34,158 bases of DNA from a virus (taxonomy: Duplodnaviria; Heunggongvirae; Uroviricota; Caudoviricetes), in the IMG/VR virus record IMGVR_UViG_2660238346_000030. One strand, 5' to 3'. Positions 1 to 15,232 of this stretch are shown piece by piece. Within the stretch, counting starts at the first letter, position 1. Each line of letters starts with the position of its first letter. The position numbers and the translations under genes are program-made. A model generated the notes under the pieces. It was given only the letters and a program-made list of their open reading frames with translations, made no database searches and had not been told where the DNA came from.

Positions 1-258
1 ATGCAAACCGTTATTTTTGGTCGTCCGGGTTGCCCTTACTGTGTGCGTGCAAAAGATCTGGCCGAGAAATTGAGCAATGAGCGCGATGATTTCCAGTATC
101 AGTATGTAGATATTCGTGCGGAAGGGATCACTAAAGAAGATCTACAACAAAAGGCAGGTAAACCCGTAGAAACCGTGCCGCAGATTTTTGTCGATCAGCA
201 ACATATCGGCGGCTATACCGATTTTGCTGCATGGGTGAAAGAGAATCTGGACGCCTGA
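1..258 (+). CDS. grxA: Glutaredoxin 1
   Basis: 85-aa ORF starting at ATG position 1 with CPYC active-site motif (GRPGCPYCVRAKDLAEKL); matches E. coli GrxA as I recall it; ybjM/ybjL neighbourhood fits. Confidence 0.93.
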   Translation: MQTVIFGRPGCPYCVRAKDLAEKLSNERDDFQYQYVDIRAEGITKEDLQQKAGKPVETVPQIFVDQQHIGGYTDFAAWVKENLDA

Positions 259-287
259 TCGTCTGACAAGCCCTCGCGTTGAGGGCT

Positions 288-665
288 TTATTGATTTTTT
301 CTGTGCTGTGGTTTAAACAAACTACTGATAAATAAGAAACACAATGCCCCCAGCGCACACCAGAACACCGCACTTAATAACCATGCCAGCTCTTGCCAGA
401 ATGAGCGCGTCGGTGAAAAAAACAGCCGCATAATGAGCATCGAACAGGGTGCCGCCAGCATTGCGCCAAACAGAGGTTTCAGGACTTCTCTACGATGTGA
501 AAAGAAGCTGGCAACTGCACCAGGAAGAATGAAAAATAGCAAACCGATTTCAGGATGCCCGGCAGCCCGAAAAGCGCCTTTCATGTGCGTCGCCAGAAAA
601 AGACACACCACAATGAAGAGGACAAAACAGCAGATTGCCCCCGCCCAACGTTGTTTATGTTTCAC
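288..665 (-). CDS. ybjM: Inner membrane protein YbjM
   Basis: 125-aa hydrophobic ORF convergent with grxA, GTG start; order grxA-ybjM-ybjL matches the E. coli K-12 locus. Confidence 0.8.
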   Translation of the reverse strand: MKHKQRWAGAICCFVLFIVVCLFLATHMKGAFRAAGHPEIGLLFFILPGAVASFFSHRREVLKPLFGAMLAAPCSMLIMRLFFSPTRSFWQELAWLLSAVFWCALGALCFLFISSLFKPQHRKNQ

Positions 666-934
666 TCGTTCCTCCTGACACTGCGTCTATCGAACACATT
701 TTTCGCCAGTGTGGCGTTCAGTAAGATAAAGCCGCTTCGCATTCCATGCTAATATAGGCCAACGCAATTCATATAGCCGTTGATACCTAATGTGATTACA
801 CTAGTAAAATATATTGTTACTTTACTATCGTTTAGGTGCGCTGAATGAATCTGCGCCCTGAATTCTGGTAAAAAACATTATCGTAAATTACCATTTCTTT
901 CAACAGCTTACTAGTAAACAAGAAGTTAGCCTCC

Positions 935-2620
935 GTGAATATAAACGTCGCCGAATTGTTAAATGGGAATTACATTCTGTTATTATTTGTGGTCCTCGCG
1001 CTTGGGCTATGTCTCGGGAAATTACGACTTGGTTCGATCCAACTGGGTAATTCCATTGGCGTTTTAGTCGTATCGCTGTTATTAGGCCAACAACATTTCA
1101 GCATTAACACCGACGCGCTTAATCTTGGCTTTATGCTGTTTATTTTCTGCGTCGGGGTCGAAGCCGGACCGAACTTTTTTTCCATTTTTTTTCGCGATGG
1201 GAAAAATTACCTAATGTTAGCACTGGTGATGGTTGGCAGTGCGCTGGTGATCGCCTTAGGGTTAGGTAAGCTGTTTGGCTGGGATATTGGCCTGACGGCC
1301 GGTATGTTAGCTGGCTCTATGACGTCGACACCGGTTCTGGTCGGTGCTGGCGATACACTGCGTCATTCCGGCATGGAAAGCAGGCAACTCTCACTGGCAC
1401 TGGATAATCTGAGCCTCGGGTATGCCTTAACCTATTTAATCGGTCTGGTGAGTTTGATTGTTGGTGCGCGTTACTTGCCGAAATTGCAGCATCAGGACTT
1501 ACAGACCAGCGCCCAGCAAATCGCCCGCGAACGTGGCCTGGACACTGATGCCAACCGTAAGGTTTATTTACCGGTGATCCGCGCCTACCGCGTCGGCCCG
1601 GAGCTGGTGGCCTGGACCGACGGCAAAAATCTGCGTGAACTGGGTATTTATCGACAAACTGGCTGCTACATTGAACGTATTCGACGTAACGGGATTCTGG
1701 CGAATCCAGACGGTGATGCTGTGCTACAAATGGGCGATGAAATAGCGTTGGTAGGCTATCCCGACGCCCACGCACGACTCGATCCCAGCTTCCGTAACGG
1801 CAAAGAAGTTTTCGATCGTGACCTTCTCGACATGCGTATCGTCACTGAAGAAGTGGTCGTTAAAAACCATAACGCCGTGGGCAAACGTCTCGCACAACTG
1901 AAGTTGACCGATCACGGTTGCTTCCTTAACCGCGTCATTCGTAGCCAGATTGAGATGCCGATAGATGACAACGTCGTGCTTAACAAAGGTGACGTTTTAC
2001 AAGTCAGCGGCGATGCCCGTCGCGTAAAAACCATCGCCGATCGCATCGGCTTTATCTCGATTCACAGCCAGGTCACTGACTTGCTGGCATTCTGCGCCTT
2101 CTTTGTTATTGGGCTGATGATCGGGATGATCACCTTCCAGTTCAGCACATTCAGTTTCGGCATGGGGAACGCTGCCGGGTTGTTATTCGCCGGAATTATG
2201 CTGGGCTTTATGCGCGCTAACCACCCGACCTTCGGTTACATTCCGCAGGGTGCATTAAGCATGGTGAAAGAGTTCGGCTTAATGGTGTTTATGGCAGGCG
2301 TTGGTCTGAGCGCCGGTAGCGGTATTAATAACGGCCTGGGCGCGATTGGCGGTCAGATGTTGATTGCCGGATTGATTGTCAGTCTTGTGCCAGTGGTTAT
2401 CTGTTTCTTGTTCGGTGCTTATGTATTGCGAATGAACCGCGCACTGTTGTTCGGCGCAATGATGGGCGCACGCACCTGCGCGCCGGCAATGGAGATCATC
2501 AGTGATACAGCTCGCAGTAACATCCCGGCGCTGGGCTATGCGGGCACCTATGCAATCGCCAACGTCCTGCTGACGCTGGCAGGGACAATCATCGTCATGG
2601 TATGGCCAGGATTAGGATAA
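935..2620 (+). CDS. ybjL: Putative AAE-family transporter YbjL (two membrane domains flanking TrkA-C-like soluble domains)
   Basis: 561-aa ORF, GTG start, N- and C-terminal polytopic membrane regions with a central soluble region; length and sequence match E. coli YbjL from memory. Confidence 0.9.
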
Positions 2621-2733
2621 AACTGAAGTTGCCCTGAAAATGAAATTTTTTTTGCACAACCGCAGAACTTTTCCGCAGGGCATCAGTCTTAATTAGTGCC
2701 ACTGCTTTTCTTTGATGTCCCCATTTTGTGGAG

Positions 2734-2778
2734 CCCATCAACCCCGCCATTTCGGTTCAAGGTTGATGGGTTTTTTGT
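2734..2778 (+). terminator. Rho-independent terminator downstream of ybjL
   Basis: Stem CCCATCAACC (2734-2743) / GGTTGATGGG (2761-2770) followed by TTTTTT (2771-2776). Confidence 0.6.
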
Positions 2779-2856
2779 TGCCTGAAATTTAAGCTGTTTA
2801 AAATCATGATGTTAGAAACACTGTTTTTTAACGATGGCGACAAAATGGCGGCAGCG

Positions 2857-3075
2857 TCAAAGAGAGAGCGCCACCTGTTCTGATTTCATTGGATGCGGCT
2901 GAACCGGATTTGACTCTTTTGGCGTTGCAATCGAACGAACAAAAGTTTCATGGGTAACAAAAGTATGGCTGCAGTTAATGTTCTGGCACTGGTTGTAACG
3001 CTCTTTGGTCAATGAAGATACCTGAAAACTGCTGCGAGTATGGGCGGCACTTCCACACAGTGGGCAAATCATCAT
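2857..3075 (-). CDS. ogr: Ogr/Delta/B-family zinc-finger late-gene transcriptional activator
   Basis: C-x2-C...C-x4-C zinc-finger pattern (MICPLCGSAAHTRSS...ERYNQCQNINCSHTF) typical of P2 Ogr / 186 B; start chosen at internal ATG with GGGGAG RBS; ORF track gives a longer 2857..3108. Confidence 0.85.
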   Translation of the reverse strand: MMICPLCGSAAHTRSSFQVSSLTKERYNQCQNINCSHTFVTHETFVRSIATPKESNPVQPHPMKSEQVALSL

Positions 3076-7822: not shown

Positions 7823-8251
7823 CGTTGGCCCCGCTTCTCTGAATCACTTTATACCGCCATTCCAGCACTTCGGTCAGCGGCATAACGTCAGTAACGGATG
7901 GCGGCCAGTGAAAGATGGTGGCGATATCAGCCACCAGATCGTCAACCGTCAGGCTGTCGGTAAACCGGCAAGCACCGACTTCTTCAACAAAAAAGTGACA
8001 ACCTCAACCGACATGGCAGTGAGATCTGCCGGGTCCATCTCTGCAATTTCCTGTGCAGTCAGTGCCGGACTGGAGATGCGGGGGATCACGGTCATCATCG
8101 CGTTCACATCCATATCCATAATGGCCTGCAGGCGTGTACCGCGCAGCGCACCGGACTGCGGTTTACGCAGCACAATTTCGGTGATTTCTGTTTTACCGCG
8201 CTTGATGGGGGTATCCAGTTGAATAGTCTTTTCAGTCTGCTTATCGCTCAT
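7815..8251 (-). CDS. E+E': Tail assembly chaperone gpE+E' produced by programmed -1 ribosomal frameshift
   Basis: Zero frame from ATG 8251 through the slippery heptamer T TTT TTG (minus strand, 7988-7994); the -1 frame continues FFVEEVGACRFTDSLTVDDLVADIATIFHWPPSVTDVMPLTEVLEWRYKVIQRSGANDE and stops at 7815-7817, overlapping the T start codon. Confidence 0.7.
7949..8251 (-). CDS. E: Tail assembly chaperone gpE (zero-frame product)
   Basis: 100-aa ORF directly upstream of the tape measure gene. Confidence 0.8.
   Translation of the reverse strand: MSDKQTEKTIQLDTPIKRGKTEITEIVLRKPQSGALRGTRLQAIMDMDVNAMMTVIPRISSPALTAQEIAEMDPADLTAMSVEVVTFLLKKSVLAGLPTA
7988..7994 (-). other. Slippery heptamer T TTT TTG for the E/E' -1 frameshift
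   Basis: Plus strand reads CAAAAAA at 7988-7994; canonical X XXY YYZ slip site in frame with gpE. Confidence 0.65.
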
Positions 8252-8305
8252 TTTGCTGTCCTGTAAATTGGGTTCTGGCGCGGTATCCCGCGCCGTTCAG
8301 ATACA

Positions 8306-8821
8306 TCAGAGGCCGAGGGCGTTGCGGTGCGCTTCCATCAGGTCCACACCGTCCACAATTTCCACCATGTTGATAAGGTCCACTTCATAGAGCACCTCAC
8401 CATTTATAGTCAGCTTCGCGTAGCTGTTGGTACTGGTCACTTTGGTGGTGTTGCTTTCGCCCGTCTTCCACTCGCCGGAATCCACTTCTTTGTGACGTCC
8501 ACGCACCACAAGCTCCACGGCCTGCACTTCCCCGGTATCGTCACGCTGGATAGAGCCGGTAAAGCGCAACTGGATACCATCTACCGTGGCTTTGCCCATC
8601 TGCTTAAACAGCAGCAGTTCAGTACCACCAATGGAAAATTCCGTATCCAGTGCGCCGTCATCCAGCCCCAGATCCACATCCACTGCACCCGGCATTCCGC
8701 CGCCGCGATACTTCTCATATTTGCGGGTAAATTTCGGCAGCGTCAGCGACTCAACGATCCCCTGCCAGTTGTTCCCGTCATTAAACAGGTTCAGGTGTTT
8801 TAATTTGCGTGGTAAAGCCAT
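8306..8821 (-). CDS. FII: Tail tube protein gpFII
   Basis: 171 aa, position between sheath gene and E; P2 FII-like. Confidence 0.85.
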   Translation of the reverse strand: MALPRKLKHLNLFNDGNNWQGIVESLTLPKFTRKYEKYRGGGMPGAVDVDLGLDDGALDTEFSIGGTELLLFKQMGKATVDGIQLRFTGSIQRDDTGEVQAVELVVRGRHKEVDSGEWKTGESNTTKVTSTNSYAKLTINGEVLYEVDLINMVEIVDGVDLMEAHRNALGL

Positions 8822-8830
8822 GTTGTCCCC

Positions 8831-10003
8831 TTACGCGCTGACCTGGCTGGAGAAATTCACCAGGTACTGATCGGTGATGCGCTGACGCAGCATCAGGTTT
8901 TCAAGTGGCGGCACTGGCGTGTAGTCGTAGTCGATGGTGAGTTTTCCGGCTTTCAGCGTGTCTTTGTCGTTCACCGACTCATCCAGCCAGCAATCACCAC
9001 CAATGAGATAGCCCTGACTGACCAGGCTGCGCATTTTGGCGCGGATACCCTCGATAATGTCGCGGGCCAGCGACGGATTCAGCGGTTTATCCACCGCCCA
9101 CATGTGCGCTTCTGCCATCGTGTCCGTCAGCACCTGCGCCGTGCGGGTGTAGTTTTCGAAGGCAAAGAGCGGGTCATCACTCAGGCAGCGGGAACCCCAG
9201 AAGCGAAAACCGTCTTTGCGGATAAGGGTGGTGACGTCGTTCTGGTTCAGCAGTCCCGCATCGGTTGCCGGGTCCTGCAGATCCCAGAACACATCAGCAG
9301 AAATTCCGGTGACACCGTTAACGCCCACGTTGGACAGGCTTTTGTGCCATCCGGTCTGCTCGTCAATTTTGGCGCGCAGACCAAGCGCACGGGCGGTGGC
9401 ATAAGCCGTTGCTTCGGCATTCAGCACCGTGTCCCAGCCAGTAAAGTCGGGCCAGATCAGCATTCCTTCACGCTGACTGAAGTTTTCACGGTAAGTGATT
9501 GCTTCCTGCACTGTCTTGCAACCATACGCTGACAGGTAAGCAAATCCACGCAGGCTTTGCGCCACGCTCAGCAACTCAGTAGCTACCGCCTTCGTGTCGT
9601 GACCTGGCACGCCGAGAATGCGCGGTTTAACGCCGAGCTGTGACTGGGCAGATAACAGGGCTTTCATGCCTGTTTTTTTACCTTCAGCGGTCACTGCTCC
9701 GATGATATTGGTCGTGGTTTCTTCTTCCGTTTCACCCTGCGGCACACGCACAACAACGGTCACGGGTTTTGCCTGGTCAGCGATGGCATCCAGCGAACGA
9801 GCCAGCGTGCCTGACTCACCCGCTTTACCGCTGGCAGTCAGCACATCAGTGATCAGCACGGGTTTATTAAGAGGAAACATTTTTGCATCGGCATCATCGC
9901 CCGTGCAGACCATACCCACGATGGCGGTGCTCACCGTGGTAATGGATCGGGTGCCTTCGTTGACTTCAACAACGCGCACCCCGTGGTGGTAATCCTGAGC
10001 CAT
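8831..10003 (-). CDS. FI: Contractile tail sheath protein gpFI
   Basis: 390 aa, first gene of the FI-FII-E-T-U-D operon. Confidence 0.88.
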
Positions 10004-10079
10004 AGTGGCGAACCTCCTGATTGGATTAGGCTTCGCCCTATGTTGAAGTGATTGTGCCTGACAAACAGCTAAGCGCAGT

Positions 10080-10097
10080 TGTACCGTTATTCACACA
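10080..10097 (-). promoter_or_regulatory. Putative late-promoter activator site (TGT-N12-ACA) upstream of FI
   Basis: TGTACCGTTATTCACACA, 77-94 bp upstream of the FI start; same TGT-N12-ACA dyad recurs upstream of V and in the P/O divergent region. Confidence 0.5.
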
Positions 10098-10145
10098 AAA
10101 TGACGGTATTTGTCTGCTTTCAGGGATAATCAAAATAAAGCTGAT

Positions 10146-10718
10146 TCAGGGAGATTTATTGTTCTTATTTGCCGGAAATTTTCGATAAATGGTAGAAACG
10201 CCTACATCAAAAATCAGTGCAATACGCTGTCTTGATTCTCCGGCCTCGAGTAAACGCCCAATCTGTGCCCACTGTTCGCTGGTCAACTTAGGACGGCGTC
10301 CACCTACTCTGCCTTTAGCACGAGCTGCAGCCAGCCCCGCCCTGGTACGTTCAACTATCAGTTCGCGTTCCATTTCAGCCAGGGCACCCATGACATGAAA
10401 AAAGAAACGGCCCATTGGGGTGCTGGTATCAATACTGTCAGTCAGGCTTCGGAAATTCACGCCACGCTGGCGCAGCTCTTCTATCAGCGTAACAAGATGC
10501 CGCATACTGCGCCCCAGTCTGTCCAGCTTCCAGACAACCAGCGTGTCTCCTGCCGATAGTGTCCTGAGCAGCTTTTTCAGCCCCGGTCTGTCGGACTTGG
10601 TGCCACTGATTTTATCCTCAAAAATCCGCTCACATCCCGCACAGTTCAGTGCATTGCGTTGCAAATCGGTGTTCTGGTCATTTGTTGACACGCGTACATA
10701 GCCAATAAGCATGATCAT
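10146..10718 (-). CDS. Serine recombinase, DNA invertase of the Hin/Gin/Cin/Pin family
   Basis: 190 aa; N-terminal catalytic motif GYVRVSTNDQ, C-terminal HTH (GESRQRIALIFDVGVSTIYR); sits beside an inverted-repeat-flanked segment carrying alternative tail fibre ends. Confidence 0.9.
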   Translation of the reverse strand: MIMLIGYVRVSTNDQNTDLQRNALNCAGCERIFEDKISGTKSDRPGLKKLLRTLSAGDTLVVWKLDRLGRSMRHLVTLIEELRQRGVNFRSLTDSIDTSTPMGRFFFHVMGALAEMERELIVERTRAGLAAARAKGRVGGRRPKLTSEQWAQIGRLLEAGESRQRIALIFDVGVSTIYRKFPANKNNKSP

Positions 10719-10767
10719 CCCCCTGAATAAAAACCGGAGATGATGCCAGTTAGCCGTTATCTCTGCA

Positions 10768-10793
10768 TTTTCATAAACGTTGGTTTGGGAGAA
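10768..10793. repeat. Crossover site A (gix/hix-like) of the invertible segment
   Basis: TTTTCATAAACG TT GGTTTGGGAGAA; fits the TTnTCnnAAACC-NN-GGTTTnnGAnAA pattern; inverted partner at 12668-12693. Confidence 0.6.
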
Positions 10794-11153
10794 GCAGCGA
10801 AACGGGGGGTGGGAACAGGGGAAAATCAGATACCGGACATGGCTTCTTTTGCCAGTGGTGATGGATGGATGAAATTACCAAACGGTAAAATTCTGCAATA
10901 TGGTCGAGGTGAGGCTATGCCGAAATTATCGACGCAAACAATGAGGATTACATTTCCTATCCCTTTCCCTAAAAAAGCGGACTGCGCCATGCTTACTCAT
11001 TCTGGTGATGGAGGTGCGCCTTTAGGCGCTGGGCGAGGGTTCGTGATGACTGCAGAAGGCCCAACGTTAACCGGCTTTAATTCTGCTTACAGAACGTCAT
11101 CAACCAGCGACACGGTATCGATGAATTACAGTTGGTGGGCTGTTGGTGAGTAA
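10782..11153 (+). CDS. Promoterless alternative tail-fibre C-terminal segment (expressed only after inversion, fused to the constant part of H)
   Basis: Open frame beginning exactly at the crossover core, in phase with H across the site (GLGE motif on both sides); ends 11 nt before the downstream assembly gene. Confidence 0.55.
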   Translation, partial: GLGEAAKRGVGTGENQIPDMASFASGDGWMKLPNGKILQYGRGEAMPKLSTQTMRITFPIPFPKKADCAMLTHSGDGGAPLGAGRGFVMTAEGPTLTGFNSAYRTSSTSDTVSMNYSWWAVGE

Positions 11154-11173
11154 TTTTATTCAGGGTGATTTAT

Positions 11174-11617
11174 ATGAACGAATATGTTTATAGCGCAAGG
11201 CATAATGCTTTTTTCCCTGTGGATATGATTGATAAATATAAATCAGAGGGATGGGATTTATCAGACGCTAAGGAAGTAAATCAAAATATTATCAGTGAGT
11301 TTATGGATGAACCGCCACAAGGAAAAATCCGTATTGCCGGAGATGATGGGCTGCCTGCGTGGGCAGATATTCCTCCACCCACGCATGAAGAACTTATTGA
11401 AATTACTGAATCAGAAAGACAGCTACTAATTCACCAGGCCAACGAATACATGAACAGTAAGCAATGGCCCGGTAAAGCCGCTATTGGTCGTCTGAAAGGC
11501 GATGAGCTTGAACAGTATGGTTTGTGGCTTGATTATCTGGATGCTCTGGAAGTTTTAAACACCTCCAGCGCACCAGATATCGAGTGGCCTAACTCTCCGG
11601 AGGAACAGGCCAGATAA
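11174..11617 (+). CDS. Tail fibre assembly protein, alternative copy (Mu U'-like)
   Basis: About 147 aa from ATG 11174 (ORF track starts at GTG 11165); C-terminal motif shared with the opposed assembly gene (both end in ...APxIxWPxxPE-like sequence); convergent overlap with it. Confidence 0.75.
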   Translation: MNEYVYSARHNAFFPVDMIDKYKSEGWDLSDAKEVNQNIISEFMDEPPQGKIRIAGDDGLPAWADIPPPTHEELIEITESERQLLIHQANEYMNSKQWPGKAAIGRLKGDELEQYGLWLDYLDALEVLNTSSAPDIEWPNSPEEQAR

Positions 11618-12188
11618 TAACAGGAGCCGTTGATATATCGACGGCTTGTAGTGCTTTGATGTAGCTCATCCAGGCGATCAGGCTAGCTTTATCTTCATCG
11701 CTGATAATGCCTAACTGTAGTTCTGTCTGCCAGAGACTGATCGTTGTCTGGGCCTCAAGCAGGAGCGCAGCTTTCTGTTGTTCCGCCGCTTCCACGTCCG
11801 CCGCGTTCTGCGCTTCCGTATCTGTCACCCACTCGCGACCGTTCCACGTATCGTAAGGCGTATCAGGTGCCAGCGTGGTGGTGCCTTCCGGGTATTCACC
11901 AGGCAAAGAAACGATCTCCGGCTCGCCTGTTTCAGTGCTGTACACCGTTTCACCACGGTGATCCGCGACGTATTCCCAGGCGGCAAAATCGGCTGTCCGG
12001 CAAATAGCAAAACCCTCTTTGCTCTCGCCGGGGGCGTCAATGCATGAGTTGGCTGGAATACCTACGCCCACGGCCAGATATTCAACAGATATAGAAAGGT
12101 ATTCTCGCGTCTCGTCATCATAGTTAAATACTGTAATATCGCCTGCCTCTGTGGCGATAAGTTCGTTGTTTAATTTTGCCTGTGCCAT
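11589..12188 (-). CDS. G: Tail fibre assembly protein gpG (copy active in the present orientation)
   Basis: 199 aa immediately downstream of H; tail fibre assembly family. Confidence 0.82.
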   Translation of the reverse strand: MAQAKLNNELIATEAGDITVFNYDDETREYLSISVEYLAVGVGIPANSCIDAPGESKEGFAICRTADFAAWEYVADHRGETVYSTETGEPEIVSLPGEYPEGTTTLAPDTPYDTWNGREWVTDTEAQNAADVEAAEQQKAALLLEAQTTISLWQTELQLGIISDEDKASLIAWMSYIKALQAVDISTAPVIIWPVPPES

Positions 12189-13729
12189 TATGCAGCCCTC
12201 ACAATGTAGTTAAATGCAACGTTTCGCGGCCTCGTTTCACTACCAAACATTTTTGAACCAAGTGTTGCCTTTGCGGTATATGTCTGCAATACCGTGCCAG
12301 TTGACGGGTTTGGGTTATATTCATTAGTTCCGTTCGGGTAATAAGCCATTGACGCATTGTTATCTATAAAAACAGCCGTCATTGGACCATCTCCGCCAGA
12401 ACTTGGTGAAGTTGGAATCCAGTGCCGGTGATCGAATGACATAGCACCCTGAGCAGAAAGCAAACCTCGCCCGCTATCAGCCCCGCGCCCGTCATCCCAG
12501 CCACGAATAAATTCGCCTCTTAAATCAGGCAATCTGAGTGCAGGATAGGCCTGAGCCAATTTGGGGTACTGAGAAGCGGTAAACGCTGCTCCATTGCATT
12601 TTAGCCATCCAGTTGGTGGAGTTGCTGACGGCCACGGAACAGGCGCACCAACAGGTAATGCTGAACCTTCTCCCAAACTAAGGTATGCGAGAAGACCAGC
12701 TACATCCTTTCCACTCAAATTGGTAAGCGTATTGTCCAGCGGTTGTTTACCTGCCAGCGCATTAAGCATTGTCGTGGCAAAGTTCGGATCATTCCCCAGT
12801 GCCGCCGCCAGTTCGTTCAGTGTATCCAGTGCCGCGGGTGCAGAACCCACCATTGCTGCAATCGCTGATTTCACAAAAGCTGTAGTGGCAATCTGTGTAT
12901 TGTTGACCGACTGTGCCGCAGTAGGTGCTGTTGGCGTTCCGGTGAGTGCTGGACTCGACAGCGGCGCTTTTTGTGCCAGCGCATTGTTAATGGTGGTACT
13001 GAAATTCGGATCATTGTTAATGGCTGCGGCTATTTCTTTCAGCGTGTCCAGCGTGGCTGGCGCACCATTAATAAGAGCCGTCAGAGCCGCCTGAACAAAC
13101 GCGGTGGTCGCAATCTGCGTGGTGTTATTCCCTGCTGCTGGCGTTGGCGCTTTGGGTGTCCCGGTAAACGTCGGACTTTCTTTGGGTGCATACTGTGAAT
13201 GCGGGTCCGGTGCGGCAAGATGTTTTGCCATCTGATCATCCGCGTACACCTTCAGCTCCAGTGCCTTGTCATCCACATACTTGCGGGTTGACAGCACTAC
13301 AGCAGGGTCGATTTTCAGGGTGATATTGTCCGTGCTGCTGGTAATCAGCACCATGCGCACGGTCTGAGTGCGCCCGCTACCTTCAGCCAGTTGCGGCTTA
13401 TAGCTTTCCGGGCAGTTTCCCACGGCAATCAATGCCCCTGATTCATCAAACAGGCCCACTTCACGTATCCACCAACCGCCCTCGTTTTCAGGGATCACCT
13501 GTTCAGCAATAATCTGGCTGCTGTTCTGCGGGTCGATATAGAGCATATTCAGCGCAGCCCGGCGTTTCTCATTTACTAATGCTGTCTGCTTTGCGTCCGG
13601 CGTTGGCAATGTTCCGCCACCATCGCCGACCGCCATATGGGTAATTTTTAAAGGCACACCGAGCGCGGCGGCGCTGGCAAGTTTCGCCGCGCCAATATCC
13701 GTTAGCAGGGTATAAAATTTTGTGCTCAT
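12188..13729 (-). CDS. H: Tail fibre protein gpH (constant N-terminal part plus currently expressed variable C-terminus)
   Basis: 513 aa with two tandem copies of the tail-fibre repeat (NNTQIATTAFV...DTL.E.A...NDPNF) and a C-terminal receptor-binding-like region; crossover site at codon about 350. Confidence 0.88.
   Translation of the reverse strand: MSTKFYTLLTDIGAAKLASAAALGVPLKITHMAVGDGGGTLPTPDAKQTALVNEKRRAALNMLYIDPQNSSQIIAEQVIPENEGGWWIREVGLFDESGALIAVGNCPESYKPQLAEGSGRTQTVRMVLITSSTDNITLKIDPAVVLSTRKYVDDKALELKVYADDQMAKHLAAPDPHSQYAPKESPTFTGTPKAPTPAAGNNTTQIATTAFVQAALTALINGAPATLDTLKEIAAAINNDPNFSTTINNALAQKAPLSSPALTGTPTAPTAAQSVNNTQIATTAFVKSAIAAMVGSAPAALDTLNELAAALGNDPNFATTMLNALAGKQPLDNTLTNLSGKDVAGLLAYLSLGEGSALPVGAPVPWPSATPPTGWLKCNGAAFTASQYPKLAQAYPALRLPDLRGEFIRGWDDGRGADSGRGLLSAQGAMSFDHRHWIPTSPSSGGDGPMTAVFIDNNASMAYYPNGTNEYNPNPSTGTVLQTYTAKATLGSKMFGSETRPRNVAFNYIVRAA
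12668..12693. repeat. Crossover site B of the invertible segment, inside gene H
   Basis: TTCTCCCAAACT AA GGTATGCGAGAA; reverse complement matches site A in 11 of 12 positions of one half-site plus the core. Confidence 0.6.
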
Positions 13730-14331
13730 GGATTCACTCTCATTGTGTCAATAACATGGACCGCCCCGCCTTCATGCGCGGTGCCGCCGGAAATAATTGT
13801 TTCGTTGATATACGGATAGATCGTGATTTCTTCGCCAAGATAGCTGGCGGCTCCCACCCAATGCGGGCCGCTGGTCTGCAGGTTGATGGACATGCCGATC
13901 ATGTGACGGCTACATGGTTTGGCATCGCTTATCAGTCGCTCAAGTTCCAGATAGGTATCTTCAGTGATGCCCTGGTCCTGCACACCGATATCCAGACGAA
14001 ACGTGCCCGGTGCCTCTCCGGTCTGCCACCACTCAATAATGCGGATCAGAAAGCCGAACGGCTCCACCACCCGCCGCACGGCACTGGTGGTCCCTTTATG
14101 CTGATGAATATAAAAAGCATCCTTCACCACCTGGCGCTTGACGCTTTCTGTCCAGCTCTCGTCCCAGCGATCCACAGAGAACGCCCAGGCGAGATAAGGC
14201 AGGAAACTGACTGGACAGGTTGCCGGATTCCACAAGTCACGCAGCGGCACCTGCAGATCAGAAATCCCGCTGCAGGTTTGCGCCAGTCGGCGCTCCAGTA
14301 GTGTTGAACCCGGTGGCAGCAGACTATTCAT
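13726..14331 (-). CDS. I: Baseplate assembly protein gpI
   Basis: 201 aa, synteny J-I-H. Confidence 0.8.
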   Translation of the reverse strand: MNSLLPPGSTLLERRLAQTCSGISDLQVPLRDLWNPATCPVSFLPYLAWAFSVDRWDESWTESVKRQVVKDAFYIHQHKGTTSAVRRVVEPFGFLIRIIEWWQTGEAPGTFRLDIGVQDQGITEDTYLELERLISDAKPCSRHMIGMSINLQTSGPHWVGAASYLGEEITIYPYINETIISGGTAHEGGAVHVIDTMRVNP

Positions 14332-15232
14332 CCGTTCCTCCGTTGGTTACGCTCCACTGCGTACATGATGCCGCCTGTGTTTTGTTCAGGACCACATCCG
14401 CCAGAGGAGAAGCCAGCTCCACACGCTGCACACCCTCAACATGCAGGGCGGCAAAGATGGCGCTACGGCGAATATCCCGACCAAGACGTGTCTGACTGGC
14501 GATGTACTTCTGCAGGCTGGCTTTTGCCGCTGCCATTACCGGCTCTGCTTCCGGTCCCGGATAGAGAAAAATGGTGGCTTCCACGCGATACGGGATGATT
14601 TCTGCGCTGCGAACCGTAAGACGGTCAGCCACCGGGCGGACGTTCTCACTGTTCAGAGCTTTTTCCACCACGTCCAGCAGGTCTTTTTCTGCAGTTCCAT
14701 CGCCTTCGCGGCTAAGGACAGTCAGCACCACCTCTGCAGGTGCCGGGCTGGTTGCACTGGCATCCGCCACCCGACCGTCGGCGCTTCGGGCATGAAATTC
14801 ATAAGCTGCAGTTGGCCCCGCAACTGAAAGCCCTTCAAAGGCTGCAGGCACACGCAGGCGTAACGCTTCATCGCTTTCCATCACAGCTGCAACGGGCGGC
14901 ACAGCGTCATTATCAGCAGGCGTCACCGTCAGGCGTTTCACGTTGTAGTTGGCAGCGAGCTGGTCAAGATCGCTGCCCATCGCGTAAGCCACCATCACAG
15001 CCTGCGCGGCTTCGTTAATGCGCTGGCGCAGAAGCAACTCACGGTAAGCGTTCTCCTGCAGCAATTTGGTGACGGGTTCAGATTCCAGTTCCAGCGTGCG
15101 GATCACTGCTTCCTGCTCATCTTTCGGATGAAGCGCCACAAATTCTGCCTTGCGTTCGGCAAGCAGCGTCTCAAAGTCCGGCACATCCACAATCTGCGGC
15201 GCAGGCAACTGCGAAAGGTCAATCACTGCCAT
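14324..15232 (-). CDS. J: Baseplate protein gpJ
   Basis: About 302 aa from internal ATG (MAVIDLSQLP...); ORF track extends to 15271. Confidence 0.82.
   Translation of the reverse strand: MAVIDLSQLPAPQIVDVPDFETLLAERKAEFVALHPKDEQEAVIRTLELESEPVTKLLQENAYRELLLRQRINEAAQAVMVAYAMGSDLDQLAANYNVKRLTVTPADNDAVPPVAAVMESDEALRLRVPAAFEGLSVAGPTAAYEFHARSADGRVADASATSPAPAEVVLTVLSREGDGTAEKDLLDVVEKALNSENVRPVADRLTVRSAEIIPYRVEATIFLYPGPEAEPVMAAAKASLQKYIASQTRLGRDIRRSAIFAALHVEGVQRVELASPLADVVLNKTQAASCTQWSVTNGGTDE

Follow-up and report, generated by a model that had tools for sequence, protein, structure and literature searches.

The window analyzed here, a stretch of 34,158 nucleotides, contains an apparently complete, Fels-2-like prophage of the P2 family, the insertion point of which adjoins ybjL-ybjM-grxA in the E. 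coli chromosome. Its tail fiber gene H, two tail fiber assembly (TFA) genes, a silent fiber tip and an invertase gene are arranged in the order Hc-[site-Hv-TFA-TFA'(opposite)-Hv'(opposite)-site]-invertase, which is also the order of the S-G segment-gin region of Mu and of Fels-2. The segment between both crossover dinucleotides (10781-12680, not assigned to a strand) is 1.9 kb long. Domain content could be established with Pfam for all five genes of the locus. An earlier, sequence-only reading of this DNA had proposed these elements, and all of them are present where it placed them, aside from the small corrections given below. In P2 itself, this place is taken by G-terminator-fun(Z)-FI, without an invertase, and a tblastn search of the window for a Fun(Z) homologue gave no match better than E = 5.7, in agreement with the proposal that the switch occupies the Z/fun position.

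Gene H (12188-13729, minus strand) encodes a protein of 513 aa with the crossover in codon 350. The constant N-terminal part (12680-13729, minus strand) thus comprises 350 codons, contains a Phage_tail_fib domain (Pfam) at residues 1-150 and is 76-84% identical to STM2706 of Fels-2. The currently expressed tip (variable part A; 12188-12679, minus strand; 163 aa plus stop) is of the Collar type, with the Pfam Collar domain located at H residues 361-408, and is 56% identical to the C-terminus of StfE of e14. The silent alternative tip (variable part B; 10782-11153, plus strand; 123 aa plus stop) has a gp53-like C-terminal domain (Pfam Gp53-like_C, E = 1e-13). Each tip is followed by its own Caudo_TAP gene. 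The chaperone paired with part B (11174-11617, plus strand; E = 1e-28) is 147 aa long from the ATG at 11174 and 43% identical to TfaP of e14; its open reading frame extends up to a GTG at 11165, and in identical loci it is called as 147 aa. The chaperone paired with part A (11589-12188, minus strand; 199 aa; E = 2e-34) is 60% identical to TfaE of e14. Its start overlaps the stop codon of H, and at its 3' end it shares 29 bp with the other chaperone gene. The two opposed assembly genes that had been recognized inside the segment are therefore both Caudo_TAP genes and convergent. When the segment is inverted in silico, the frame is kept and H becomes a protein of 473 aa reading ...LLAYL/GLGEAAKRG...; both the 513-aa and the 473-aa product are open to the stop. 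Part B was also found fused to H in two other loci (L001 and L017), in the latter of which the 473-aa gene was called, so the in-frame fusion across the sites proposed for H holds in silico as well as in a natural sequence. The two C-termini had been estimated at 163 and about 126 aa: the first value is correct, and the second should read 123 aa.

The segment is bounded by two 26-bp hix-like sites. The invertase-proximal site (10768-10793, plus strand) reads TTTTCATAAACG TT GGTTTGGGAGAA with the crossover at 10780-10781, and the site inside H (12668-12693, plus strand) reads TTCTCCCAAACT AA GGTATGCGAGAA with the crossover at 12680-12681. They agree as an inverted repeat at 20 out of 26 positions and form the longest inverted repeat within 9500-13500. 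Both sites have the layout of the Din family: within 26 bp, two imperfect inverted half-sites of 12 bp enclose a core of 2 bp. Two positions of the left site (TTTTCA..., ...ACG) deviate from the ideal half-site. The central dinucleotides on the plus strand are TT and AA, respectively, and the sites are therefore in inverted orientation. A scan with the Din-family consensus TTCTCNNAAACCNNGGTTTNNGAGAA, allowing up to three mismatches, returned exactly two matches in the 34-kb window, namely these two sites, with none expected from 100 shuffles. As a positive control, the same scan recovered the annotated crossover points of the Mu G-segment and the P1 C-segment. A chance inverted repeat is ruled out by the shuffles and these controls, and the inverted 26-bp sites of hix/gix type with a common central TT, as originally described, are confirmed by both the repeat search and the consensus scan. 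A shufflon with more than two sites was also considered and ruled out, as only two sites were found with up to three mismatches in the whole window and with up to five mismatches in 9500-13800; the same applies to a multi-site fiber locus such as p15B Min or the three-repeat locus of EPEC. The reverse complement of the left site matches the pinE-proximal site of e14 at 26 out of 26 positions, and homology with inverted relatives stops at the left site. Because of the identity with the e14 site, the invertase of this prophage could act on the segments of resident Pin invertases, and vice versa.

The gene next to the left site (10146-10718, minus strand) encodes a Din-family serine DNA invertase of the Fin/Pin/Cin/Gin type. 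The protein has the N-terminal catalytic domain (Pfam Resolvase, E = 2e-53, residues 5-137) and the C-terminal HTH (HTH_7, E = 6e-16, residues 140-183) of the small serine recombinases of this family. Solved structures of Mu Gin (3uj3 and 4m6f) match it at an E-value of about 1e-92, against only 1e-28 to 1e-34 for the gamma-delta and Tn3 resolvases, and the catalytic serine is present in a VRVSTNDQ motif inside the alignment to Gin. Amino acid identity amounts to 83.5% with Fin of Fels-2, 83.5% with PinE of e14, 76.6% with Cin of P1 and 71.5% with Gin of Mu. The open reading frame is intact, and many genomes carry it with 100% conservation. Its true start is probably the second ATG, at 10712 (MLIGYVRVST..., 188 aa), as in Gin, Cin and PinE; the family and place assigned to this gene by the sequence-only reading stand, while the start at 10718 is less likely.

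According to the P1 record, the enhancer of Cin occupies nt 19-90 of cin. The 5' ends of the invertase genes were aligned and synonymous conservation was tested for the equivalent stretch (10623-10694, minus strand; nt 19-90 of the invertase coding sequence), which is a putative recombinational (Fis) enhancer by its position relative to P1. This stretch is identical to the P1 enhancer at 55 out of 72 positions. Across five invertase genes, the identity of synonymous codons is 0.54 here versus 0.39 elsewhere (per-codon test, one-sided p = 0.02), a difference that translation-start constraints could equally explain. By eye, no two convincing Fis cores 48 bp apart could be defined in the 5' end of the gene. 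These comparisons weakly suggest a Fis enhancer; a requirement for Fis and an enhancer, like the rate of inversion, is a property that we infer. A simple promoter scan around the segment gave nothing significant, for the invertase as elsewhere, with counts not exceeding those in shuffles, and the number of matches in a terminator scan of the same region was likewise not above shuffles.

Loci in other assemblies occur in both orientations. Two of them (L014 and L015) are 100% identical to positions 8000-15000 of the window and have its orientation. Four further loci (L016-L019), which stem from the three draft assemblies GCA_000936715.1, GCA_000936345.1 and GCA_000941435.1 and are all located at contig ends, share 99.9-100% identity and contain the exact 62-nt recombinant junctions predicted for an exchange at the central TT, the segment being inverted relative to identical flanks. 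In these loci, the differing bases on either side of the TT core delimit the crossover, and a crossover at the core dinucleotide is as expected for a serine invertase. In three of the four (L016, L017 and L018), a native and an inverted junction stand on the same contig. With a perfect shared repeat of just 12 bp, such mixed contigs must derive from reads of both orientations. The protein called in L017 is the predicted inverted H, with 473 out of 473 residues identical. A lookup with gpU of the window returned sibling prophages at the same chromosomal site; among those in closed genomes, two (L116 and L123) are inverted and four (L118, L119, L121 and L124) are oriented as in the window. The segment is also inverted relative to the window in E. 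coli HCM-28C-2, and the junction between H and the gp53-like tip is covered at at least 80% in 46 complete E. coli genomes. The same element thus exists in nature in both orientations, as the recombinant junctions and the 473-aa fiber demonstrate and as had been predicted, and the segment appears to invert with exchange at the 2-bp core.

The recombinant loci lie at the ends of draft contigs, three being chimeras that have the same flank at either side; this could point to an assembly artefact or to RecA-dependent homologous recombination between the inverted repeats as the source of the alternative orientation. A perfect repeat of 12 bp, however, is not long enough for RecA recombination or for leading assemblers astray. 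In addition, each junction represents an exact reciprocal exchange within the interval set by the differing bases next to the central TT, and the sibling prophages in closed genomes show clean inversions with intact fusion open reading frames, so that we consider such an origin extremely unlikely. It is also very unlikely that the locus is a frozen relic, with an intact anatomy but a segment that no longer inverts at a meaningful rate here, the orientations in the databases then being rare and ancient events. Among assemblies with an identical 199-aa chaperone, 20 out of 24 contigs read group with L013-L015 in the orientation of the window, and the evidence for an enhancer is weak, both of which would fit a relic. 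Yet the invertase gene is intact and fully conserved, the recombinant junctions occur in assemblies that are otherwise 99.9-100% identical, and the presence of both junction types in one contig or assembly indicates heterogeneity within the sequenced cultures. Homologous P2-like switches, moreover, flip continuously in culture (PMC4272514).

A further possibility concerns the lysogen. A stub open reading frame (ATG at 10740 plus 14 codons), the ATG of which is not a real gene start, lies in front of the left site. Fused to the facing tip, the stub might yield a free receptor-binding fragment that blocks other phages, and this fragment would be the relevant output in the lysogen, instead of or besides the virion. 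An anti-T2 role has been reported for StfE2, the inversion product of the e14 P segment (PMC12529663), to which the locus is related by its identical invertase-proximal site and by a Collar tip and chaperone with 56-60% identity to StfE and TfaE. In either orientation, annotation pipelines treat the stub as a gene. Nevertheless, GGAG lies 0-3 nt from the ATGs, which is a poor spacing for a ribosome-binding site, and the promoter scan detected no promoter-like site upstream. The prophage also looks complete and collinear with Fels-2, so a function in the virion is sufficient to explain the switch, and we consider a free fragment unlikely. Equally doubtful is the related idea, drawn by analogy, that the stub-fused tip may mask a surface receptor and protect the lysogen, by which virion host range and lysogen immunity would be toggled together.

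We therefore favor, with a probability of about 0.9, the reading that this P2-family, Fels-2-like and apparently complete E. coli prophage carries a two-state, invertase-driven tail fiber switch, which is real and appears active. Invertase dimers would bind both 26-bp sites, and 2-bp staggered cuts at the central TT, followed by strand exchange, would invert the 1.9-kb segment. As one site is placed in codon 350 of H, there are two products that the late V-operon transcript can encode: with the segment oriented as in the window, it would give Hc with the Collar-type tip, followed by the 199-aa chaperone, and after inversion Hc with the gp53-like tip, followed by the 147-aa chaperone. A population of lysogens would then release two kinds of virions with presumably different receptor specificity, a form of bet-hedging on host range. 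We infer this difference in host range between both orientations from the unrelated folds of the tips (Collar versus Gp53-like_C in Pfam).

Tail fiber and receptor predictions for such prophages must weigh both C-termini. Assemblies tend to break or turn chimeric at the segment (L016-L019, perhaps L120), and the fused fiber gene is often split or mislabeled by annotation pipelines (L001). The switch is a swappable cassette and is absent entirely from two sibling prophages at the same chromosomal site (L115 and L117). Such a cassette is useful in studies of the modular evolution of receptor-binding modules and in building P2-type phages or tailocins whose host range can be selected. Apart from correct annotation, the locus matters little, being a clean, apparently active classical switch in a P2-family prophage.

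A separate observation was made in S. Typhi. It involved a hixL-type pattern and may be more interesting than the locus in the window. A scan of genome contigs with a hixL-type pattern gave 90 matches, most of which are chance matches in unrelated taxa; only a locus in S. enterica subsp. diarizonae was informative, and the loci listed did not include the LT2-type representative of S. enterica. The Typhi remnant was not returned by the lookup with gpU of the window.

Invertible tail fiber segments in P2-like phages have already been described (PMC3535392, PMC7953296, PMC4272514), and the Fin invertase of Fels-2 and its segment were described in 2006 (Kutsukake et al., as cited in PMC3535392, PMC4122451 and PMC7953296). 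The earlier remark that P2 lacks such a switch is correct, but the arrangement is not unusual among P2-like phages, since it is shared by Fels-2 (Fin/fix) and many P2-like prophages of E. coli, Klebsiella and Salmonella. Fels-2 (Felsduovirus) has the same P2-type backbone, collinear at 75-87% nucleotide identity, and its switch resembles the present one in its place between FI and H, in its gene order (invertase, silent H' tip, chaperone, opposed chaperone, H), in its related invertase (83.5% identity, as above) and in 26-bp sites with the same consensus. It differs in the length of the segment (about 2.7 kb versus 1.9 kb), the central dinucleotide (TC/GA versus TT/AA) and the host (Salmonella versus E. 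coli). The tips and chaperones are mostly unrelated, with C-terminal parts of the chaperones that are only 25-46% identical and tips without a match.

The P segment of e14 shares the invertase-proximal site, the TT/AA core, a similar length (1.8-1.9 kb) and, at the identities given above, PinE, StfE, TfaE and TfaP. In contrast, e14 is a defective lambdoid element of E. coli K-12 with a truncated fiber gene, whereas the window contains a complete P2-type tail operon, and the gp53-like tip has no detectable similarity to StfP. The G segment of Mu, Sc-[gix-Sv-U-U'-S'v-gix]-gin, follows the same logic and order, and its invertase gene likewise has the 5' end toward the segment. Gin and Cin belong to the same invertase family (72-77% identity) and act on sites of the same architecture, but the backbones of Mu and P1 are unrelated, their segments of 3-4.2 kb carry other tips, and in P1 it is the 3' end of cin that abuts cixL. 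For the P2-like prophages of EPEC E2348/69, Goldberg et al. (2014; PMC4272514) used sequencing and PCR to measure continuous inversion. According to the published description, one of these E. coli prophage loci is a simple two-state switch like the one described here, while the second has three repeats and four variants, as opposed to only two sites in the window. Gene order, reading frame and the natural alternative orientation all agree with the original assignment to the Mu G / P1 C / e14 P type, and the locus represents an ordinary case of this long-known type of phage host-range switch.

The region between the tail sheath gene FI (8831-10003, minus strand) and the tail fiber gene H (12188-13729, minus strand) contains the genes of an invertible tail fiber switch. 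The open reading frame (ORF) map places a 190-aa ORF (10146-10718, minus strand) next to FI. This protein has the Pfam domains Resolvase and HTH_7 and matches Gin crystal structures (E about 1e-92). It is followed by a 137-aa ORF (10740-11153, plus strand) with a Gp53-like_C domain and by two ORFs of the Caudo_TAP family of tail fiber assembly chaperones, one of 150 aa (11165-11617, plus strand) and one of 199 aa (11589-12188, minus strand). The H protein (513 aa) carries a Phage_tail_fib domain at the N-terminus and a Collar domain at residues 361-408. In the sequence, H and the 199-aa chaperone gene overlap at the stop codon of the former and the start of the latter, and 20 nt separate the stop of the alternative tip from the start of the 147-aa chaperone. 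The two chaperone genes converge and share 29 bp at their 3' ends. Just past the stop of the plus-strand chaperone, and within the minus-strand chaperone gene, lies a 22-bp near-perfect palindrome (AGCCGTTGATATATCGACGGCT, 11625-11646), which might be a candidate bidirectional transcription stop or RNA element.

The longest inverted repeat within 9500-13500 pairs 10768-10794 with 12667-12693. The left site (10768-10793, plus strand) reads TTTTCATAAACG-TT-GGTTTGGGAGAA and the right site (12668-12693, reverse complement) TTCTCGCATACC-TT-AGTTTGGGAGAA, with 20 out of 26 positions matching and the core TT oppositely oriented at the two places. A scan of the 34 kb with a Din-type consensus (three mismatches at most) returned these two sites and no others, while shuffled sequences gave none; as positive control, the scan recovered the annotated boundaries of the Mu G segment and the annotated P1 cixL/cixR crossover points. 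The core of the right site covers positions 2-3 of H codon 350, and exchange at both cores in silico yields an uninterrupted H of 473 aa, consisting of 350 constant residues and a 123-aa gp53-like tip instead of the present 163-aa Collar tip. Each tip, in its own orientation, has a chaperone gene downstream. The sequence-only reading had proposed a crossover at about codon 350 with the frame kept and two C-termini of about 163 and 126 aa, each with its own chaperone; given these in silico products and the chaperone placement, this description is accurate, except that the alternative tip is 123 aa long.

As a check on activity, loci encoding the exact proteins of the window were looked up. Two loci (L014 and L015) have the same orientation and are 100% identical to window 8000-15000. 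Four others from three draft assemblies (L016-L019; 99.9-100% identical) have the other orientation and contain, verbatim, the 62-nt junctions predicted from exchange exactly at the central TT. Since the sites differ at the bases directly flanking the core, the crossover is confined to these 2 bp, and exchange limited in this way is the signature of a serine invertase. The gene product called in L017 is identical to the predicted inverted H over 473/473 residues. In a more distant sibling, E. coli HCM-28C-2, the flanks are collinear at 96% identity, the segment is inverted with breakpoints within the sites, and the fusion ORF is intact. Both orientations also occur among closed genomes whose prophages occupy the same chromosomal site, and 46 complete E. 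coli genomes cover the H-gp53 junction at 80% or more. The predicted alternative orientation is therefore found in nature, both as inverted junctions in L016-L019 and among sibling prophages.

In each of three of these loci (L016, L017, and L018), a native junction and an inverted one lie together on the same contig end. As the perfect repeat spans only 12 bp, such mixed junctions require reads of both orientations in the sequenced culture. Their presence in near-identical assemblies makes it unlikely that the switch is a frozen relic, and an origin of the alternative orientation as an assembly or RecA artefact is likewise improbable in view of this short repeat and the exact exchange at the core. 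It has also been considered that the stub ORF at 10740 may have a lysogen-level role, as reported for e14 StfE2 (PMC12529663). What speaks for this analogy is that the site and one tip are homologous to those of e14; we regard such a role as unlikely.

Two database records present the module differently. In E. coli HCM-28C-2 (NZ_AP038246.1; L001 3928-5349), RefSeq splits the inverted fiber into a ‘gp53-like domain-containing protein’ and a ‘phage tail protein’ pseudogene. Translation gives a single intact H-gp53 ORF; the split call is an annotation artefact typical of such switches. In scaffold KE700796.1 (GCA_000458955.1; L120 1-4603), the module is seemingly doubled into a 3.9-kb palindrome (Collar tip-TFA-TFA-gp53 / gp53-TFA-TFA-Collar tip, TFA being the assembly chaperone), and the detected sites are the two outer ones only. 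This is probably a scaffolding artefact from a mixed-orientation culture; a real duplication is less likely.

The Cin enhancer is annotated in the P1 record as nt 19-90 of cin, and the equivalent stretch of the window (10623-10694) is identical to it at 55 of 72 positions. Synonymous-codon identity among five invertase genes is 0.54 in this stretch vs 0.39 elsewhere (per-codon one-sided p 0.02), a weak signal that would fit an embedded cis element at this position.

The first 2.9 kb (window 1-2900) correspond to E. coli ybjL-ybjM-grxA (99.9% identity) and adjoin the ogr end of the prophage; the remainder aligns collinearly with Salmonella phage Fels-2, with a nucleotide identity of 75-87%. A related prophage (L122) adjoins smpB, the Fels-2-type site, instead. 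P2 has a terminator and then fun(Z) between G and FI. A Fun(Z) homolog was sought in the window and none was found, so the switch was correctly placed in the position of the P2 Z/fun locus. Two sibling prophages (L115 and L117; E. coli CP173600.1 and CP078137.1) have an identical gpU and the same ybjL-side integration site and lack the whole switch. At the equivalent of window 10000-13729, they encode an H of 576 aa that ends in a Phage_fiber_2 tip, together with one 144-aa chaperone, and FI follows directly; neither an invertase nor hix-like sites were found there. The switch thus behaves as a swappable cassette.

S. Typhi Ty2 (AE014613.1, about 2.744-2.765 Mb; L125) carries an invertase 100% identical to that of the window, after which only half of a P2-like prophage, FI-FII-E-T-U-D-ogr, is present. 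The locus abuts iroB (order iroN-E-D-C-B) via a hybrid site, TTCTTGAAAACC-AA-CGTTTATGAAAA (L003 4926-4951). The outer half equals the outer half of hixL beside hin in S. enterica subsp. diarizonae (L078), the inner half is the invertase-proximal half-site of the window prophage, and homology to the window ends within the site, at 10786. The hybrid site resembles what would remain had an invertase deleted the DNA between a Fels-2-like prophage site and hixL. Such a deletion would have taken out hin-fljBA and could account for the monophasic flagella of Typhi; no statement of this reading was found in the literature searched.

The arrangement is the same in Fels-2, with FI, a DNA invertase (STM2702), an H-like fragment, two opposed G-like genes, and H. 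The window invertase is 83.5% identical to both Fels-2 Fin and e14 PinE, 76.6% to P1 Cin, and 71.5% to Mu Gin. The gene order of Mu S-G-gin equals that of the window, including an invertase gene whose 5' end points towards the segment. The e14 proteins StfE, TfaE, and TfaP share 43-60% identity with the Collar tip and the chaperones, and the pinE-proximal site of e14 (E. coli K-12; L023 4606-4631) is identical to window 10768-10793 at 26/26 positions. The core common to both sites, TTGGTTTGGGAGAAGG, is the repeat quoted for the PinQ/PinE-driven inversion of the P segment. Given this identity, the prophage and the Pin systems of resident cryptic prophages could plausibly flip each other's segments. 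PMC3535392 and PMC4122451 credit Kutsukake et al. (2006) with the description of Fels-2 Fin and its 2.7-kb invertible fragment, and the Fels-2 fiber gene differs in orientation between LT2 and LT7 (PMC7953296). Continuous inversion has been measured for two P2-like prophages of EPEC, one a two-state system and one a three-repeat shufflon (PMC4272514). The same gene set also occurs in many phage records, already labeled ‘DNA invertase / tail fiber assembly.’ Based on these published systems and annotated records, the locus is a correctly identified, ordinary member of a well-known kind.
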